Origin: Gammaproteobacteria bacterium
GTDB taxonomy: Bacteria; Pseudomonadota; Gammaproteobacteria; Eutrophobiales; Eutrophobiaceae
Reading direction: 5' to 3'
DNA length: 64,000 nt
Assembly (NCBI GenBank): GCA_965222155.1
Contig: CBDCTH010000012.1
Span: forward strand, 2,080,001 to 2,144,000
The notes beneath the pieces are model-generated. The model ran no database searches. It was not told where the DNA came from and was given only the letters and a program-made list of their open reading frames with translations. Position numbers and translations under genes: made by a program. Shown here piece by piece: positions 24,625-32,151 of the stretch. How positions within the stretch are numbered: the first letter of the stretch is position 1; each line of letters opens with the position of its first letter.

Positions 24625-25433
24625 GGCCATTTTTGAAATGGCCCGGGGGGAAATACCGGCTCCTGTCGAAAATACGCCGCGCCCTGCATCCGGGGAAACG
24701 GTTGATTGAACCGTTTGTCGGTTCCGGCGCGGTATTCCTCAATACCGATTACGCCACCTACCTGCTGGCGGATGCCAACCCTGACCTGATTGGCCTATAC
24801 CAACAGTTAATTGAGGAAGGCCCCTCTTTCATCAGCTATTGCCGTTTTTTTTTTGATGGCAGGCACAACAACGGGGAAAATTATTACGCCTATCGTGACG
24901 AATTTAATGAAACCCGTAATGCCAGAAGGAAATCGGCGCTTTTTCTGTACCTGAACCGGCACGGTTATAATGGTTTATGCCGCTACAATGGCAAGGGCGG
25001 GTTCAATACGCCGTTTGGCCGCTATGACAAGCCCTATTTCCCCGAAAAAGAAATGCAGGCCTTTGCCGCACGCGCGCAAAGCACCACGCTGCTGCAAGCC
25101 CATTTTGACGAGAGCATGGCAAGGGCGCAGCCCGGCGATGCGGTCTATTGCGACCCGCCGTATGTCCCCTTATCGGAAACCGCGCACTTTACCGACTACC
25201 ACACGGCAGGTTTTAGCTGGGATGATCAGGTACGTCTGGCAAACTTTGCCTGTGAACTGGCGGGCAACCGGATTCAGGTTGTCATCTCAAACCACGATAC
25301 CAGGCAGACGCGGGAGTTATATGCCGGGAGAAAGGCAAAAATTTCCCGCTTCAAAGTCAGGAGATACATCAGCAGCGACGGGAACAACCGCGGGGAAGTC
25401 GGCGAACTGCTTGCGGTGTTCAACCCCCGGTAA
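24621..25433 (+). CDS. dam: DNA adenine methylase, Dam family (probable ATA start at 24621; first canonical start is TTG at 24633)
   Basis: RPFLKWPGGKY, EPFVGSG, FLYLNRHGYNGLCRYN, YCDPPY. Confidence 0.93.
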   Translation: MRPFLKWPGGKYRLLSKIRRALHPGKRLIEPFVGSGAVFLNTDYATYLLADANPDLIGLYQQLIEEGPSFISYCRFFFDGRHNNGENYYAYRDEFNETRNARRKSALFLYLNRHGYNGLCRYNGKGGFNTPFGRYDKPYFPEKEMQAFAARAQSTTLLQAHFDESMARAQPGDAVYCDPPYVPLSETAHFTDYHTAGFSWDDQVRLANFACELAGNRIQVVISNHDTRQTRELYAGRKAKISRFKVRRYISSDGNNRGEVGELLAVFNPR

Positions 25434-25644: not shown

Positions 25645-25757
25645 CCTCCCAGCTATTGATCATAACGGCGGTAATTGGTAGATTAGACGCTGTTCCCCGG
25701 GGAAAAACTCAAAACAGCATACTGAAATACCAGCGCCTCCATTCTCCTGATAGCTTC

Positions 25758-27224
25758 ATGACAAAAACAGACACTGCCTCCTGGGTCGGAAAAACCTTCG
25801 ACGATTTCCTGTTTCGCCCGCAAAAAGGGCTGACCGAAACACGCCGTGATATTAACCTGTCCACGGTTATGACCAATGACATCTCATTGGAACTGCCCAT
25901 TGTCTCGTCCAATATGGATAGCGTGACCGGCGCGGATATGGCCAGGGCCATGGCGATGGAAGGGGGCATTGGCGTTATCCATCGCGCCATGACTATAGAG
26001 AGACAGGCGCGCAAGGTGGCCCAGATTAAACGCAGCCAGAGCGCGGTCATCAAAAACCCTTTATGCCTGCCGTCGGGCGCTACCATTAAGCAAGCCAGGA
26101 AGTTTGCCAAGAACCATGCGATTACCGGCATTCTTATCGAGACGGAACCCGGCAGCGGTATCCTGGCCGGACTCCTGTCGCAACGGGATATGCCCTGGAA
26201 CGGTGACCACGATGGAGAACCGGTTGATCGTTTTATGACGCCTTTCGACCGGCTCGCAGTCGATAAGCCTGACATTTCCATCGAACAGGCCTCAAAAATC
26301 CTGTTTGAAAATCGCATTGAACGCCTGCCGCTGGTCGATGCAGACCGGCGCATCCATGGTTTGATCACGCGCCGGGATATTTTTTCCCTGCGAGAACGCC
26401 CCTACTCCAGTAAAGATGATAAGGGACGCCTGCTGGTGGGCGCGGCCATCGGCGCGCGGGGTGATTACCTGGACCGTTCCGCGGCACTGCTGGAGGCCGG
26501 TGCGGACTGCCTGTTCATAGATATTGCCCACGGCCATTCAACCGTGATGGAAGATGCCGTTGAAAAATTTCGCCAACGGTTCGCTGGCGTGCCGCTTGTC
26601 TGCGGCAACGTAGCCACTGCGGAAGGCGCGCAATTCATGCGGGATATCGGCGCCGATGCGGTTAAGGTCGGTGTGGGTCCCGGGAGCGGTTGCCGCACTC
26701 GCCTGGAAACCGCAGCTGGCGTGCCGCAGTTACAAGCGATACGTGAAACCTGGCAGGCTCTGGGTGATTCGATCCCGATTATGGCCGACGGCGGCATCAA
26801 GACGGACAAGGATATCTTTCTCGCCCTGGTATGCGGCGCAACAACGGTCATGCTGGGCAGCGCATTGTCCGGCACCGACGAGGCGCCCGGCCGAGTCATC
26901 GAAGATCCCGTCACCCATACCAAAAAGAAGATCTATCGCGGCATGACCTCCCCGGAAGCGGTGTTCGAATCTCTGTACGATCCGGAGAATGCCGAAGCTA
27001 CGGATGCGGCCCTGGATACCCCGCCCGAAGGCCAGGAAATACAGGTGCCCTATAAAGGCAGCGTCGGGGATATACTGCATCGTATCCGCGGCCACCTCCG
27101 CTCATCCATCAGCTATGCCGGCGAAGCCTCCTTGCAAGCAGCGCGCACAAAGATTCTGAACAACCCGGAAAAGTACCTGATACCCCTGTCGGAATCCTCC
27201 CGCAGGGAGTCCTACGAACGCTGA
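25758..27224 (+). CDS. IMP dehydrogenase/GMP reductase family protein with CBS (Bateman) domain
   Basis: TFDDFL, SSNMDSVT, CBS pair, DIAHGHS, GPGSGCRTR, ADGGI, YRGM, PEG; no RY dyad in the flap. Confidence 0.9.
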   Translation: MTKTDTASWVGKTFDDFLFRPQKGLTETRRDINLSTVMTNDISLELPIVSSNMDSVTGADMARAMAMEGGIGVIHRAMTIERQARKVAQIKRSQSAVIKNPLCLPSGATIKQARKFAKNHAITGILIETEPGSGILAGLLSQRDMPWNGDHDGEPVDRFMTPFDRLAVDKPDISIEQASKILFENRIERLPLVDADRRIHGLITRRDIFSLRERPYSSKDDKGRLLVGAAIGARGDYLDRSAALLEAGADCLFIDIAHGHSTVMEDAVEKFRQRFAGVPLVCGNVATAEGAQFMRDIGADAVKVGVGPGSGCRTRLETAAGVPQLQAIRETWQALGDSIPIMADGGIKTDKDIFLALVCGATTVMLGSALSGTDEAPGRVIEDPVTHTKKKIYRGMTSPEAVFESLYDPENAEATDAALDTPPEGQEIQVPYKGSVGDILHRIRGHLRSSISYAGEASLQAARTKILNNPEKYLIPLSESSRRESYER

Positions 27225-27234
27225 TAATTACAAC

Positions 27235-27846
27235 TTATATTTCACCCTGATTATTTCTTTTCGCAGGTAACAAATCTTCCAACTCTGCAAAGATTTCTTT
27301 TGCACCCTTTTTATCCCGGTAAATTTCACTCAAGGACAAGCCATTTAATTCGTAGGGCAATACCAGCCATTTATCGGTTTCGTGCAAATAATAATCCGGT
27401 ATTCGCCCGGTTCGGTTATTGGCCGGTTTATACCAGAGTACGGCAACACGGACATCCACAGGCATATTCCTGCGAGTTTTTTGAGAAAGTTGATCAATCA
27501 CGGCCTTGACACTCAGCCCGGTGCCATATACATCATCGACAATCAATAGCCTGTTGTCCGCTTCCAGGTTTTCCAGTAAGTATTGCAGTCCATGTACATG
27601 AATACCCGATACATTCTCGATCATGTCTGCATAAGTGTTCATGCCGGCATAAGAGGTGCGTATGGAAATATGATCCGTTTCCACACCGAGGTATTCGAGA
27701 CAGTCCTGTACACCGATACCAACCGGGCTGCCGCCACGCCACAACCCGACGATAAAATCCGGCCTGAATTCACTTGCATGGATTTTTACCGCGAGCCGGT
27801 AACAATCCAGCAATTGATCCTCTGCGTTGATAAATACTTTATCCAA
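27235..27846 (-). CDS. Purine (hypoxanthine/xanthine/guanine) phosphoribosyltransferase
   Basis: WRGG, LIVDDVYGTG PRPP-binding motif, WLVLPYE. Confidence 0.88.
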   Translation of the reverse strand: MDKVFINAEDQLLDCYRLAVKIHASEFRPDFIVGLWRGGSPVGIGVQDCLEYLGVETDHISIRTSYAGMNTYADMIENVSGIHVHGLQYLLENLEADNRLLIVDDVYGTGLSVKAVIDQLSQKTRRNMPVDVRVAVLWYKPANNRTGRIPDYYLHETDKWLVLPYELNGLSLSEIYRDKKGAKEIFAELEDLLPAKRNNQGEI

Positions 27847-27960
27847 TTCTCAAATCCAAACCGATTAAATCATCCCCGGCGCGGGAAAATGATTTAGCAC
27901 AGGCACCCAATATCTAAAAGTATATAATGACACACAGAATATGGTAGAAAATAATTCCCT

Positions 27961-28530
27961 ATGACCGAAAAGCTCTATCTCTCTGCACAAGGCCAACTTG
28001 AAGATTCGTTCAGATTAGGCAGCCAGGTTCTGAAAAGCGGGTTTAAACCCAAAGTCATTATCGCAATATGGCGGGGCGGGGCGCCTATCGGTATCGCGGT
28101 GCAGGAAATACTCGAATACTTCGGCATTAAAACCGACCATATTGCTATTCGTACGTCGTCTTACGGTGGTATTGAAAAACGTTCGGATGACGTGCGCGTT
28201 CACGGCTTGAATTATTTAATTAAAAATATCAATCATACCGATCCGTTACTCATTGTTGATGATGTATTTGATACCGGCCTGACGATTCACGCGGTCATTG
28301 AAACAATACGGGAAAGGGCAAGACTGAATGCACCCGATGATATCCGGGTCGCCGTACCCTGGTATAAACCCAGCCATAATAAAACAGAGCGTGAGCCTGA
28401 TTATTACCTGCACACCACAGAACAATGGATAAAGTTTCCGTTTTCACTGGAAGGATTGACCATTGATGAGATACAACAAAACAGGCCTTCCATATATGAA
28501 ATCCTGGCGCCGGTGATAACTTCTCGCTAA
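27961..28530 (+). CDS. Purine phosphoribosyltransferase (paralog)
   Basis: WRGG, LIVDDVFDTG, WIKFPF. Confidence 0.88.
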   Translation: MTEKLYLSAQGQLEDSFRLGSQVLKSGFKPKVIIAIWRGGAPIGIAVQEILEYFGIKTDHIAIRTSSYGGIEKRSDDVRVHGLNYLIKNINHTDPLLIVDDVFDTGLTIHAVIETIRERARLNAPDDIRVAVPWYKPSHNKTEREPDYYLHTTEQWIKFPFSLEGLTIDEIQQNRPSIYEILAPVITSR

Positions 28531-28628
28531 TTCAACGCTGTTAATTACAATTTATATCTCAACCTGATTTTTTCTGTTTGCAGTAAAATATCCTTCAACT
28601 CATTTTATGACGTTGAGGGGGACCACGA

Positions 28629-28985
28629 TCAAGTTCGAGGGCTGGTAGAACCTTGTTTTTCGACTCCTCTATACCAGGTCTTAGACATATCCTCACTCAA
28701 AACCGGGGACACATCAGGGTTAATGCTTAGAACGTTCAGCCCAACCCGTGCAGCCATATTCACCAACTTATCGATGGTGAATTTGCTAATCCGATCATGG
28801 ACGAGTTCACTGACTCGTGAACGGGGTACCCCAAACCGCAGTGCGGCCTCTTTTTGAGTGATTCCTTCGCTGCGGATATAATTCGCCAGAATATCCATCA
28901 GTTGAGAACGGAGTTTGAGATTGGCAGATTCTCCCGGGCTGTCTGCAATTGCATCCCATACGCTCTGACAAGTATCAATCTTCAC
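28629..28985 (-). CDS. XRE/HigA-type HTH protein
   Basis: SVWDAI..NLKLRSQLM...ITQKEAALRFGVPRSRVSEL...KFTIDKL; GTGA overlap with the upstream gene. Confidence 0.85.
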   Translation of the reverse strand: MKIDTCQSVWDAIADSPGESANLKLRSQLMDILANYIRSEGITQKEAALRFGVPRSRVSELVHDRISKFTIDKLVNMAARVGLNVLSINPDVSPVLSEDMSKTWYRGVEKQGSTSPRT

Positions 28986-30742
28986 CGGCGCCTCCTGAAA
29001 CCAGGTCCGGTTGGCTCGTATTCCAATAGTGCTGACTTTCCGACCATCTCAATGAACCGTACTGTCCATTCAGATCCGTTGATATCGGTGAGACGCAAGG
29101 GCTGTTTAAGTTTGAAGTGTACCGGTTGCTGTTCTCCTTCATTTATCGCAATGTTGGTAGTGTAGAGATACATGCGGTCGAGGTTGTCAAGAATTGGGTT
29201 AAGCTGACCAGCTAAATCAGGTAAATGACCAGTCTGCTCCGGGAATATCTCGGAACCGCCCTGCGGCAGTGGTTCGAGTTCTACAGAGAGGGGCTCAGGT
29301 GGATGCCAATCACACTCAACATATGCGCTATGCTCTGGCGCCGCACAGAAGACGGTAATGGGTAGTTCTGAATGAAACCCAAAGGTAACCCGTCCGAACG
29401 CGTCGGTTTCTCCCCCCATCCAGGTCTTATTGGGATAAAGAGCTACGACTTTTGCGCCCGCAAGTGGTCTACCGGACACAAATACCGATACTTCTCCTTC
29501 GATGCCCGCTACCGGTGGATTGGCAGAAGGTATAGTCAACCATAGTTCCGCAACGCCGTTCAATTTGTATTCCGGGTCACGCCCGGTTAACTCCCGGGTC
29601 TGTTCGTAAATAATCGGCACACCTTCACCGCGTTGCTCAAGGAAATACTGCTGGTCGCCAGCGCCGGCGATGTCCCCCACCACGAGCATCCGCAGGTTTG
29701 ATGCAAGGGTTTCATTGCGAGTGGCTTGCCTGCTGCGCATCGCTTCTATGGGCAGGGTATTGGGCAGGGCACCGGGCGAATATAACTCAAGGCGATCATC
29801 GAAGATGAAGAGACGTATTTTCTCGTTATGAATCGAGTAGTCACGATGCACCACAGCATTAACAATGGCCTCAAACACAGATCGCGGACTGAATTGTGGG
29901 GTTTCCATACGCCCAGGGTCCTTGCGCGCTGCTACCCGGGTGTTAAGCCTGATGAAATTCACGGTGTCACGGATCTGCCGGTCTAACGAGCCGGTGATAG
30001 TCGACGCATCATGTTGGCTTGCACGGCCGAGCACTGTGCCGCGATAGCGAACAGCTTCAATCATGGCGCCTCTTATATATTTTTCCGGGTGAGCACAACA
30101 AAGTAAAATACCGGCGACCGTTGCACGTAGGCTACCGTTATCATCTTCCCGCATTAAACCCAGCTTTGTGAGTTGTACTATTTCGGTCTCAATGGCGCGT
30201 GAACTTAAAAAGCGGTCCACAAGACTTGCATCAAGCGTGTTCCGTCCGGTTCCAGCGATGATTGCTTCATCCGGGCCAAGCAAACCGGAACGACCCCGCT
30301 GTTGGAACAGCCGCTGTAGTGCCTCGGATGACAATTCACGCTTGGAACTCCCTTGTCTGACCAAATATCCGCCGGGACTCTTGTGAACCAACGCACTCTG
30401 TTCTACTTCAACAATAAGTACAGATGAATCATCAGGCAAAGCCAGTCGTTGAGTAATAATGTTCAGTTTTGGTCGGATACTATCTTCACAAATCTCGGTG
30501 ACGAAGGCTTCTAACGCATCCATCTGTTGCCGATTCATCGAACGCACATCACCGGAGTCGGACACGTTGAAAATCAACGTACCTCCTCTAGTGTTGCCGA
30601 AAGAGGACAACTCGTCTGCGACAGCATCCCGGTGTGGCGCACGAACGCGGTTCTTAGCGGTGAATTTGACTTCCTTGAACTCAACGCGGCTGTCCTCACC
30701 GAGTTTGAGTTGTTGTAACAAACTTTTATTATCCCAAGCCAT
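28982..30742 (-). CDS. Schlafen/AlbA_2 domain + HATPase_c_4 (GHKL) protein with extra beta-rich C-terminal domain
   Basis: GEDSRVEFKE, FGNTRGGTLIF, EAIVNAVVHRDY, DRLELYSPG, RN..LA, EQRGEG. Confidence 0.88.
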   Translation of the reverse strand: MAWDNKSLLQQLKLGEDSRVEFKEVKFTAKNRVRAPHRDAVADELSSFGNTRGGTLIFNVSDSGDVRSMNRQQMDALEAFVTEICEDSIRPKLNIITQRLALPDDSSVLIVEVEQSALVHKSPGGYLVRQGSSKRELSSEALQRLFQQRGRSGLLGPDEAIIAGTGRNTLDASLVDRFLSSRAIETEIVQLTKLGLMREDDNGSLRATVAGILLCCAHPEKYIRGAMIEAVRYRGTVLGRASQHDASTITGSLDRQIRDTVNFIRLNTRVAARKDPGRMETPQFSPRSVFEAIVNAVVHRDYSIHNEKIRLFIFDDRLELYSPGALPNTLPIEAMRSRQATRNETLASNLRMLVVGDIAGAGDQQYFLEQRGEGVPIIYEQTRELTGRDPEYKLNGVAELWLTIPSANPPVAGIEGEVSVFVSGRPLAGAKVVALYPNKTWMGGETDAFGRVTFGFHSELPITVFCAAPEHSAYVECDWHPPEPLSVELEPLPQGGSEIFPEQTGHLPDLAGQLNPILDNLDRMYLYTTNIAINEGEQQPVHFKLKQPLRLTDINGSEWTVRFIEMVGKSALLEYEPTGPGFRRRR

Positions 30743-30933
30743 GAAGTACAAATATCAGGAGTATTTACACGCCTGGAAAGCGAGAATCCGTCGGGCGGCA
30801 TCAAGCGAAGTGTACTTGTATAGAATCATGTCTGCATAGGTACTGATACCAGTATAAACGGTAACTCGCGGCCGTCCAACTCTACCTCAGCGGTCAGGAA
30901 GCCTATCAGGGTACCTGACTCTTTCACCCGCTT

Positions 30934-32151
30934 CTATTCCACTTCGGCGCCTGACTTATACCATTGATCGACAAGTCGGCGTTCTTCGCTGGTCATCTGT
31001 GTCAGGTTTGCCAACGGCATGGTCCTGGTGGTGACGGTTCTGTCATGAATACGTTGCGCCCATTGTCTGATTTGTTCCGGGGTGTCGAACATCACGCCGT
31101 TGGGCGCTACGGGCGCGGTGGGATGGTTCGGTTCAGCGGAATGACAGACATTACAACGCTGAACGATCACTTCATTCAGTCGGGAAAATGAAACAGGCTC
31201 TACGAGTTGAGCAGGTTTTATTACCGTATCCTGCTCCGGAATGGCCCTGGATTTAGGGGCAGCCAGGAACGCAACCACGGCAATAATGATAATCGCGATA
31301 ACGAGCAGAGCGGGCGCCGCCTTGCCCTGGTTGCGCAGGTTGAAGAAATGCCGGATCAATACCCCGACGATGAAGATGGCAATGAGCAGCAGCCAGTTGT
31401 ATTCATGCCCGTAGGTCATGGGATAGTGGGGGCTCAGCATAACGAACAATACAGGCAGGGTGATGTAGTTGTTATGCACGGAACGCTGTCTGGCCTTGAG
31501 ACCCGGTAACGGGTCCGGCTCTTCGCCGCGCTGTTTGGCCTGCACCAGTTCACGCTGGCCCGGAATGATGACCATGAGCACATTGGCGACCATAATGGTG
31601 CCCAGCATGGTGCCGATTTGAATATAAGCGCCGCGTCCGCTGAACAGCTGCGATACGATATAAACGGCGACAACCAGGAATAAAAAGCCGAGCAGCCCAA
31701 TCCAGGCGTCAGTCAAGCCGCTCCTGCATAGCAGGTCGTAGACGACCCAGGCCACTACAATGAAGCCGATACTGATACCAATGGCCATGCCGCCCGTGAT
31801 ATCGGCAACGGTTTTATCGACCAGGTACACATCGGCATTGACGTAATACATCACAACGAGCAAAGCAAACCCGGTCAACCAGGTGGCATAAGCCTCCCAC
31901 TTGAACCAGTGCAGAGGTTCGGGCAATTCTCCGGGCGCGACCTTATACTTCTGTGCGTGATAGAAACCCCCGCCATGCACTGCCCAGAGATCGCCGGCCA
32001 CCGCGTCGTCTTCCGGATCCCGGGGAGGGATATTAAGATTCGTATCCAGCCAGACAAAGTAAAAAGAGGAACCGATCCAGGCGATACCCACGATCAGGTG
32101 CGCCCAGCGCAACAACAGGTTCAGCCATTCCAGTATGTATGCTTCCATCAT
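30934..32151 (-). CDS. puuD: Urate hydroxylase PuuD (membrane domain + cytochrome c)
   Basis: RWAHLIVGIAWIGSSFYF, WFKWEAY, RSVHNNY, C-terminal CNVCH. Confidence 0.93.
   Translation of the reverse strand: MMEAYILEWLNLLLRWAHLIVGIAWIGSSFYFVWLDTNLNIPPRDPEDDAVAGDLWAVHGGGFYHAQKYKVAPGELPEPLHWFKWEAYATWLTGFALLVVMYYVNADVYLVDKTVADITGGMAIGISIGFIVVAWVVYDLLCRSGLTDAWIGLLGFLFLVVAVYIVSQLFSGRGAYIQIGTMLGTIMVANVLMVIIPGQRELVQAKQRGEEPDPLPGLKARQRSVHNNYITLPVLFVMLSPHYPMTYGHEYNWLLLIAIFIVGVLIRHFFNLRNQGKAAPALLVIAIIIIAVVAFLAAPKSRAIPEQDTVIKPAQLVEPVSFSRLNEVIVQRCNVCHSAEPNHPTAPVAPNGVMFDTPEQIRQWAQRIHDRTVTTRTMPLANLTQMTSEERRLVDQWYKSGAEVE

Follow-up and report, generated by a model that had tools for sequence, protein, structure and literature searches.

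A Schlafen-ATPase gene ending in a conserved bipartite beta module: a candidate member of a bacterial defense class

The window analyzed here is a 64,000-nucleotide stretch of a gammaproteobacterial genome of the family Eutrophobiaceae (assembly GCA_965222155.1, contig CBDCTH010000012.1, positions 2,080,001 to 2,144,000). It carries a gene for a protein in which a Schlafen nuclease domain and a GHKL ATPase domain are followed by a two-part beta module, and this Schlafen-ATPase gene is our subject. We consider it about evenly balanced whether the gene is a stand-alone member of the pSlfn/Schlatpase defense class, in which a conserved bipartite beta input module has taken the place of the usual winged helix-turn-helix (wHTH) and gates an ATP-assembled Schlafen RNase. 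A first-pass annotation of the window had called the gene a candidate new anti-phage sensor-effector. Its beta tail is indeed untypical, but the architecture class is already published, and "Ig-like" tails form a category in an Extended Data legend of the paper that names it (10.64898/2026.05.29.728809; here and below, cited work is used as far as the accessible text of each source goes). The Schlafen-plus-GHKL class, its linkage to restriction-modification (R-M) and its sensor-effector logic are all in print (PMC13056530; 10.64898/2026.05.29.728809). The new element is the promiscuous beta module, at which no dedicated literature search was aimed.

We propose nuclease activity, ATP gating, a sensor role for the module and a defense function for the window protein, and these could work together as follows. 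Binding of ATP at the GHKL domain would drive self-association, which would bring single-lobed Schlafen domains together as an active tRNA/RNA nuclease. As the input domain in place of the wHTH, the C-terminal module would engage a conserved ligand or partner protein, by which the nuclease would be held or released. The outcome would be growth arrest of the infected cell, that is, defense of the abortive-infection type. The window copy would have left the type III R-M operon setting of its closest relatives and would now stand alone in a hotspot between puuD and IMPDH genes, where the small XRE gene downstream would at most co-regulate the new operon.

Domain architecture and the beta module

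Both core domains named by the first-pass annotation are well supported. Pfam places SLFN_AlbA_2 at residues 16-137 (54.3 bits, cut-off 25.3) and, further along the same protein, HATPase_c_4 at residues 307-396 (58.3 bits, cut-off 26), and the motifs quoted for the Schlafen domain are present (GEDSRVEFKE at residue 15 and FGNTRGG at 48). Aligned with rat Slfn13 (chain 5yd0_A) at residue level, E16-DSRV-E21-F-K23 coincides with the ExxxxEFK motif, and D62 with the acidic residue that comes next. The GHKL domain has an N-box (E291/N295) and a glycine motif (RGEGV at 371). Across 19 aligned family members, E291, N295, H299, R300, Y302, G372 and G374 are invariant, and conservation is 90% or higher at E16, K23 and D62. 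The PADLOC model for SLFN-pAgo (PDLC02394) matches residues 30-395 with E 1.4e-19, and no NCBIfam family matches the protein. By its domains, its motifs and this PADLOC match, the protein is therefore assigned to the Schlafen-plus-GHKL "Schlatpase" supradomain (10.64898/2026.05.29.728809), a term that full-text literature, to the extent it is accessible, contains only in that source. The N-terminus is hydrophilic, with a best 19-residue hydropathy of 1.22; a signal peptide is absent, as first annotated, and hydropathy reveals neither a hydrophobic N-terminus nor a transmembrane (TM) segment.

The tail of about 170 residues is where the protein departs from its class. Pfam detects no wHTH, and AlphaFold2 predicts an all-beta structure (pLDDT 93.8, pTM 0.85, from a 45-sequence alignment), which upholds the earlier view that a beta-rich sequence takes the place of the wHTH. 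The motifs GRPLAGAKVVAL (residue 424), GETDAFGRVTF (444) and ITVFCAAP (462) lie in this tail. The transthyretin/carboxypeptidase-regulatory fold attributed to the whole of it holds for the first half only; the second half is a separate beta domain. As modeled, subdomain 1 is a seven-stranded transthyretin-like beta sandwich. VIA comparison gives Z 10-11 with rmsd 1.4-1.8 Å over 74-80 residues to 5aq0_B, 8qox_B, 3e8v_A and 1qmu_A (for 5aq0_B, Z 10.9 and 1.5 Å over 76 residues; 10.7 for 8qox_B and 10.1 for 1qmu_A), and the top Foldseek match is 8qox_B (E 6.6e-5). The Pfam family CarboxypepD_reg (PF13620) reaches subdomain 1 below threshold (E 0.0024; 18.6 bits against 32.3), and a precomputed match to it is present in some homologues. 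A sequence-profile search of the Protein Data Bank (PDB) with the tail returned weak matches, to Ig/transthyretin-type subdomain 1 only.

Subdomain 2, of about 87 residues, is also confidently predicted when modeled alone (AlphaFold2 pLDDT 92.4). It carries the signature GxLNPILD..R.YLY..NIAI..G..QPV, seen in the window protein as GRLNPILD...R-YLYA-NIAI...QPV. Neither Pfam nor NCBIfam has a family for it, and Foldseek found nothing at E≤1e-3 in the PDB or in BFVD, so that the Foldseek check envisaged for the tail gave an answer for subdomain 1 alone. The best VIA score, Z 7.2 to 4gbs_B, is at background level by the tool's own rating. An FHA-like or HmuY-like identity was rejected, with scores of Z 4-7.2 (4-6 for FHA domains) that lie within that background. 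The top score of an ESM Atlas search was 0.82, which is uninformative, and a predicted homodimer of the module (two copies, tail residues 18-188, alignment A1) scored 0.00 and 0.00, which speaks neither for nor against dimerization.

It is useful to set this architecture beside systems of known function. RzAgo, the SLFN-pAgo of Runella zeae, tetramerizes upon ATP binding by its GHKL domain, and its Schlafen dimers cleave tRNA (10.64898/2026.05.29.728809). The window protein shares with RzAgo and the Schlatpases the order Schlafen then GHKL (PF13749), the ATP-binding E/N pair and the Schlafen motifs; E291/N295 probably correspond to RzAgo E314/N318, an equivalence drawn without direct alignment. 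Unlike RzAgo, it lacks an Argonaute core and a wHTH, and has the 170-residue bipartite module as its C-terminal input. Like the Schlatpase class, its family spreads horizontally and is linked to R-M genes, including in Poribacteria. A second comparison is with the pSlfn proteins, which protect against phages and among which the Ig-like domain of pSlfn5 senses a T5 tail-assembly chaperone (PMC13056530). Like pSlfn5 (RorSlfn5), the window gene is a single gene joining a Schlafen nuclease to a C-terminal beta sandwich, a sensor that is shown for pSlfn5 and proposed here; unlike pSlfn5, the window protein has a GHKL domain between the two. The sensor domains also differ, since that of pSlfn5 is integrin-ectodomain-like and diverges fast between homologues, whereas the window module is transthyretin-like with a second, novel domain, and is conserved. 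The pSlfn1 and pSlfn2 proteins, the commonest prokaryotic Schlafen classes, have the same Slfn-plus-GHKL core and class defense scores of 0.71-0.73 (PMC13056530), comparable to the partial linkage described below; they terminate behind the ATPase or in an HTH, whereas the window protein has the beta module. The 17 supplementary tables of PMC13056530, as available, contain no transthyretin, CarboxypepD or His_Kinase_A-plus-Ig class.

Features of the Schlafen-ATPase locus, in window coordinates
Feature	Position	Strand	Details and basis
Schlafen-ATPase ("Schlatpase") gene with C-terminal bipartite beta module	28982..30742	(-)	586 aa; ORF list, Pfam
SLFN_AlbA_2 nuclease domain, residues 16-137	30332..30697	(-)	Pfam E 2.4e-14; alignment to 5yd0_A
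Ex4ExK motif E16/E21/K23 of the Schlafen domain, D62 downstream	30674-30697	(-)	alignment to 5yd0_A
GHKL (HATPase_c_4) ATP-binding domain, residues ~290-400	29543..29875	(-)	Pfam E 7.8e-16
Module subdomain 1, predicted transthyretin/CarboxypepD_reg-like beta sandwich, residues ~412-493	29264..29509	(-)	AlphaFold2, VIA, Foldseek
Module subdomain 2, predicted conserved beta domain, residues ~494-580	29003..29263	(-)	AlphaFold2; outside known families
XRE gene, HTH_37 (HigA-type)	28629..28985	(-)	118 aa, GTG start; Pfam
Spacer, 190 bp, 5' of the Schlafen-ATPase gene	30743..30933	(-)	arrived with the gene; no homology in the empty site of G013

Distribution of the module and selection on the gene

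An exhaustive phmmer search with the 192-residue tail against 1.84 billion representative proteins found the module in 517 protein clusters at E≤1e-3, 351 of them at E≤1e-10. The match is C-terminal in nearly all 517, in proteins of 90-758 residues. Pfam domains were then counted by hand in the best 150 clusters. SLFN_AlbA_2 and/or HATPase_c_4 occur in 23, and TIR-type domains (TIR_2, TIR, SEFIR or CAP12-PCTIR_TIR) in 16; other partners are a caspase domain (Peptidase_C14, 3), Pkinase (3), Trypsin_2 (2), PIN_8 (2) and AAA_14/DUF4143 (4), with single cases of Peptidase_M48, an N6_Mtase fragment, an HSDR_N fragment, Dockerin and Fic-like_C only. The remaining 92, many of them short, have only Ig/CarboxypepD-type matches or none. 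Fusion to TIR, caspase, PIN and other effectors fits a sensor or adaptor role. The receptor-type kinase P0122, with the module beyond its TM helix, has it in the position of a ligand sensor.

Within these proteins the module behaves as a movable unit. Some carry two or three tandem copies; one of these, a caspase-like protein, opens with a hydrophobic stretch that falls short of a clear signal peptide. Because P0149 and P0176, which belong to the Schlafen/HATPase_c_4 group, continue after the module with a Fic-like_C wHTH, and P0163, which matches no other family, with Fic-like_C, the module can evidently be inserted ahead of the usual wHTH. Subdomain 2 is sometimes present without subdomain 1 and is therefore the core unit.

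The TIR, caspase, kinase and other fusions are known from metagenome protein clusters, which come without genomic context. Among species-representative genomes, a scan seeded by a protein joining TIR to the module gave 234 relatives, the best 80 of which matched in the module only. In 64 of these 80 the match lies in an open reading frame (ORF) of 564-624 codons, presumably a Schlafen-ATPase form. Eleven of the 16 ORFs of odd length were scanned; all 11 carry HATPase_c_4 and 6 also SLFN_AlbA_2. Schlafen-ATPase-plus-module ORFs of 901-911 residues in two loci (L168:3847-6552 and L182:3817-6552) have about 330 extra N-terminal residues that match no Pfam family, and may be further fusions or over-extended ORFs. 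One genome of Latescibacterota, G438, encodes a 295-residue protein with the module behind an N-terminal region of no Pfam family (L036:1213-2100), and also has two Schlafen-ATPase-plus-module genes.

The full-length protein is itself widespread. At least 120 database clusters are 75-87% identical to it over the full length, with members assigned by their record titles to Latescibacterota, Poribacteria, Rhodothermales, Dehalococcoidia, Acidimicrobiia, Bryobacterales, Binatia, Alpha- and Gammaproteobacteria and others; all come from metagenome-assembled genomes. Closer to home the gene is patchy. An orthologue of 82-84% identity is present in 3 of the 22 other species of the genus, and several species of the genus have relatives of 43-45% identity that end near residue 410, without the module, which was also not found in 400 other sampled genomes of the phylum. 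A scan of metagenome contigs returned a single locus. A viral origin was considered and rejected: the viral contigs searched hold no relatives of the protein, and BFVD gave no fold match at E≤1e-3. Other Schlafen-ATPase paralogues in the window's genome are doubled with identical scores (G000:C10:39399-40346 and G000:C7:16056-17003; C8:25999 and C10:111483), which, with an assembly contamination of 7.28%, suggests duplicated contigs or repeats.

Selection was estimated by the Nei-Gojobori method from 120 pairs among 16 close orthologues. The ratio dN/dS is 0.089 for the Schlafen region, 0.106 for the linker, 0.063 for the GHKL domain, 0.147 for subdomain 1 and 0.114 for subdomain 2. Thus, every domain, the module included, is under strong purifying selection (0.06-0.15). 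Because dS is about 0.7-0.9 within the genus and saturates between phyla, transfers of the gene are old. Nucleotide homology to other phyla (74-76% identity) stops at the borders of the Schlafen-ATPase ORF. Within the genus the gene is kept at one chromosomal site in four species, and its nucleotide identity to locus L005 (81.5%) is similar to that of the flanking puuD (81.4%).

Genomic setting: a toxin slot and restriction-modification neighbors

The ORF list confirms both genes at the positions first annotated, as it does the 4-nt overlap (GTGA) between the XRE start and the Schlafen-ATPase stop. The Schlafen-ATPase gene starts at the ATG at 30742, where its homologues open with the same MxWD, so that a TTG at 30751, considered as an alternative start, is unnecessary. 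Its upstream spacer has one weak sigma-70-like site (30878 to 30851), in a scan whose yield is at chance level (4 sites against 3.2 expected). The GC content of the gene is not distinctive, and a search for flanking repeats as a signature of a mobile element found none.

The history of the site is recorded in a sister species of the same genus, G013, which lacks the Schlafen-ATPase gene. The window aligns to G013 at 27219-28984, from two phosphoribosyltransferase (PRTase) genes through XRE, and again from puuD, at 30932 onward; homology breaks exactly at the XRE start codon. The 408 bp that intervene in G013 encode a 118-residue Gp49 protein (PF05973, E 4e-24) directly upstream of the XRE orthologue. 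A Gp49 toxin (RelE/ParE-type) preceding an HTH_37 antitoxin (HigA-type) is a documented toxin-antitoxin (TA) pair (PMC7157771). In the window, XRE matches HTH_37 (E 6.4e-17; 61.6 bits against a cut-off of 27) and is intact and conserved relative to G013 and L005. It is the leftover HigA-type antitoxin of a Gp49/HTH_37 pair. The Schlafen-ATPase gene and its 190-bp spacer fill the toxin slot both in the window and in G020, and the coupling overlap with the antitoxin is kept. The locus thus resembles Gp49/HTH_37 pairs in its XRE family and in the toxin-first order of the G013 orthologue, and differs from them in having the Schlafen-ATPase gene where the toxin would be. As to direction, the toxin was presumably displaced by the Schlafen-ATPase gene. 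The earlier description of a HigA-type XRE without a RelE partner therefore stands as regards the HTH_37 match and the lack of any RelE/Gp49-type ORF next to XRE in the window, with the reservation that the HigA equivalog TIGR02607 scores below its cut-off (E 0.0048).

The coupling to XRE that the first-pass annotation had taken as part of the system is not a property of the family. A tblastn search found the XRE downstream in 1 of 10 related loci with downstream DNA, namely L005, where the overlap reads TGATG. A small XRE lies directly downstream in the window, in L005 (the sole case among 62 tallied loci) and in L030, a locus of Latescibacterota in which a second copy of the gene is followed by a different XRE (HTH_3). 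The orthologous loci L001 and L008 of the same genus have none.

The surroundings are a purine-gene cluster, as first described and as Pfam confirms: xanthine dehydrogenase subunits, XdhC, Urate_ox_N, two PRTases and an IMPDH/GMP-reductase gene. In G022 puuD abuts IMPDH directly, in G004 the gap holds other cargo, and in G002 XRE lies elsewhere, near a Fic gene. With the contents of G013 and the window also differing, the puuD-IMPDH gap is therefore a variable hotspot. It spans 27235-32151 (loci L199-L202), between IMPDH at 25656-27224 and a puuD-type urate-oxidase-like gene at 30934-32151, and, depending on the species, is empty or holds two PRTases, the Gp49/HTH_37 pair, the Schlafen gene, a Fic gene or a hydrolase/PLP-decarboxylase/glyoxalase set. 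The two PRTase genes beside XRE are divergently transcribed paralogues (27235-27846 on the minus strand and 27961-28530 on the plus strand; both Pribosyltran, E 4.7e-12), conserved in L001 and absent from G022. Elsewhere in the window, a D12-class (Dam-like) adenine methyltransferase gene at 24633-25433 (+) (E 2.4e-64) lies beside BolA and IspA-family genes; no restriction gene is nearby, and it is probably an orphan housekeeping methylase.

To describe the wider neighborhoods, ORFs were called in 67 loci, 62 of which were kept because the focal ORF was recovered (L061, L064, L068, L076 and L078 were left out), and Pfam was run on cluster representatives of the two neighbors on either side. 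R-M genes, counting one Vsr and some fragments, occur within this distance in 17 of the 62 loci, TA genes in 11, transposase or recombinase genes in 5, and other defense-like genes in 14, the last being our own loose class with ambiguous families included (AAA_21, M78/IrrE, PLD, other Schlafen-ATPases, AAA_14-DUF4143, Uma2 and AAA_16). In all, 32 of the 62 have at least one defense-type neighbor, in a tally made without a matched background control. The gene also appears as a lone insertion, as in L010, where ABC-transporter genes flank it, and in L091, where anthranilate synthase genes do.

The strongest linkage is to type III R-M. In 10 of the 16 loci whose protein is at least 75% identical to that of the window, one Res-like family of about 1,020 residues (ResIII plus RE_endonuc) directly adjoins the gene on the same strand, and it does so in 0 of 46 loci at 69% identity or less. 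The gene lies either in the res-mod interval or immediately upstream of res, with spacings of 33-165 bp; L006 is arranged as res, Schlafen-ATPase gene, MNT/HepT, mod. The six close loci without the adjoining Res are three of same-genus Gammaproteobacteria and L002, L037 and L041. More distant members (L053, L055, L058, L059 and L067) have type I R-M genes beside them. The window's genome has a related Res (61% identical to that of L003) with a Mod on C12 at 1.739 Mb, 368 kb from the gene. The defense island in question (L204, G000:C12:1738990-1749700) comprises a Res of 1015 residues, a 90-residue ORF, a Mod of 699 residues and a 333-residue protein, together with a UvrD-like helicase (a weak Schlafen-group-3 helicase match), an MmeI fragment, a HigB/HigA pair and a PemK-like toxin; its res-mod spacer is the slot that holds the Schlafen-ATPase gene in relatives.

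Competing explanations and implications

Several observations weigh against the defense reading set out at the start. The window copy has no defense gene within two ORFs, and 30 of the 62 family loci lack any defense-type neighbor, so the expected defense neighborhood materialized for about half of the family and not for the gene in question. Across the genus, a close Res is present in 3 of the 4 genomes that have the gene and in about 5 of the 19 that lack it, a weak contrast between genomes that are kin and not independent, which makes the co-occurrence of Res and the gene suggestive only. Six of the 19 aligned members have G, N, R, A, Q or another residue in place of the second catalytic glutamate, E21, and because of this the Schlafen nuclease may not be essential to every member and is perhaps dispensable in some. 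The substituted proteins (P0009, P0079, P0121, P0135, P0196 and others) include some about 80% identical to the window protein and may be nuclease-dead, ATPase-competent variants. Two pSlfn1 (Slfn-HisKinase) genes gave no protection in the panel when tested in E. coli (PMC13056530). The trypsin-like module proteins carry signal peptides, that is, they are secreted, and have tandem copies; modules on these and, beyond its TM helix, on a receptor-type kinase are hard to reconcile with a purely intracellular sensor of phage proteins. In species-representative genomes the module is seen only on Schlafen-ATPase proteins. Finally, the module is conserved rather than diversifying, unlike the pSlfn5 sensor: at a dN/dS of 0.11-0.15, against 0.06-0.11 elsewhere in the protein, it does not show the sensor-concentrated divergence of pSlfn5. 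The earlier suggestion that the beta domain senses a phage protein while the ATPase gates the nuclease is thus backed by the precedents of pSlfn5 (PMC13056530) and SLFN-pAgo and by the effector fusions, and is set back by the lack of hypervariability.

Three other explanations deserve weighing against this balance. The R-M linkage suggests a guard of the PrrC type, a latent tRNase silenced by the type III restriction enzyme that would fire when a phage disables R-M; the module would dock on Res/Mod or sense an anti-restriction factor, and the window copy would act in trans with the locus 368 kb away. PrrC and RloC, NTPase-regulated tRNases in R-M operons, supply the precedent (PMC1484252, PMC3458546) as a functional analogy to the closest relatives of the gene; their folds are unrelated (an ABC-type ATPase and the PrrC nuclease domain), and the window copy is outside an R-M operon. 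A guard would account for the operon-like placement beside one Res-like family in most of the closest loci, the type I genes beside distant members, the module's fusion to N6_Mtase and HSDR_N fragments, the related Res and Mod in the window's own genome, and the Schlatpase reported inside R-M operons of Poribacteria (10.64898/2026.05.29.728809). We nevertheless regard it as unlikely, as 45 of the 62 loci have no R-M gene within two ORFs, G020 carries the gene with only a 36%-identical Res, and the TIR, caspase, PIN, trypsin and kinase fusions, some of them secreted, are not specific to R-M; moreover, R-M adjacency may reflect cargo rather than partnership. The toxin slot invites the pairing that the first-pass annotation had proposed, with the Schlafen-ATPase as toxin and the overlapping XRE as antitoxin or repressor. 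The exact fit of the gene into the Gp49/HTH_37 slot, the coupling overlaps in the window and L005, the conservation of an intact XRE and the HTH_3 gene after the second copy in L030 all agree with this. We judge it very improbable, given that only one tallied locus besides the window and L030 has a small downstream XRE, that the same-genus orthologues L001 and L008 lack it, and that the canonical partner of this XRE family, Gp49, occupies the same site in G013.

A non-immune role is also unlikely in our estimation, although it meets several of the difficulties above. The protein would then be a housekeeping or regulatory ATPase that binds nucleic acid or a ligand, with a beta module recognizing a cellular or environmental ligand common to the communities. 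The older annotation as a "putative DNA-binding/RecG-like ATP-binding protein" is in line with this, as are the source names "putative DNA binding domain-containing protein" and "AAA family ATPase". So are the strong purifying selection on all domains with divergence like that of puuD, the stable retention at one site in four species, the half of loci without a defense neighbor, the variable E21, and the modules on secreted and receptor proteins. Against it, the DNA-binding wHTH is missing, the spread is patchy (3 of 22 other species of the genus, and the module in 0 of 400 other genomes of the phylum), single-gene insertion occurs in unrelated operons, and the partners of the module are typical immune effectors. 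We therefore retain the reading of the gene as a stand-alone pSlfn/Schlatpase member with a beta input module, at the even balance stated above. A broader version of it is possible but rather doubtful. In this version, the transthyretin-like spacer and the beta domain of about 87 residues would form an input domain, new and widespread, for prokaryotic conflict systems. It would bind one conserved ligand or partner inside and outside the cell and would have been joined to Schlafen-ATPase, TIR, caspase, PIN, trypsin-like protease, protein kinase, AAA_14-DUF4143 and R-M enzymes, and the window protein would be a ligand-gated Schlafen tRNase with a new kind of sensing, shared horizontally among many phyla of one community type.

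What is at stake is what the domains fused to bacterial Schlafens sense. Bacterial Schlafens have newly been shown to be anti-phage tRNases, and here a large unannotated beta module, with 517 clusters and a core domain that has neither a Pfam family nor a clear solved relative, is joined to the majority of the classic immune effector domains. If the module is a sensor, it would be a compact, transferable input domain, and knowing what it binds would reveal at one stroke how a whole set of systems is triggered. The locus itself is a clean natural example of a Schlafen gene in a HigBA-type toxin slot, and of an R-M-associated gene that persists as an orphan under strong purifying selection.

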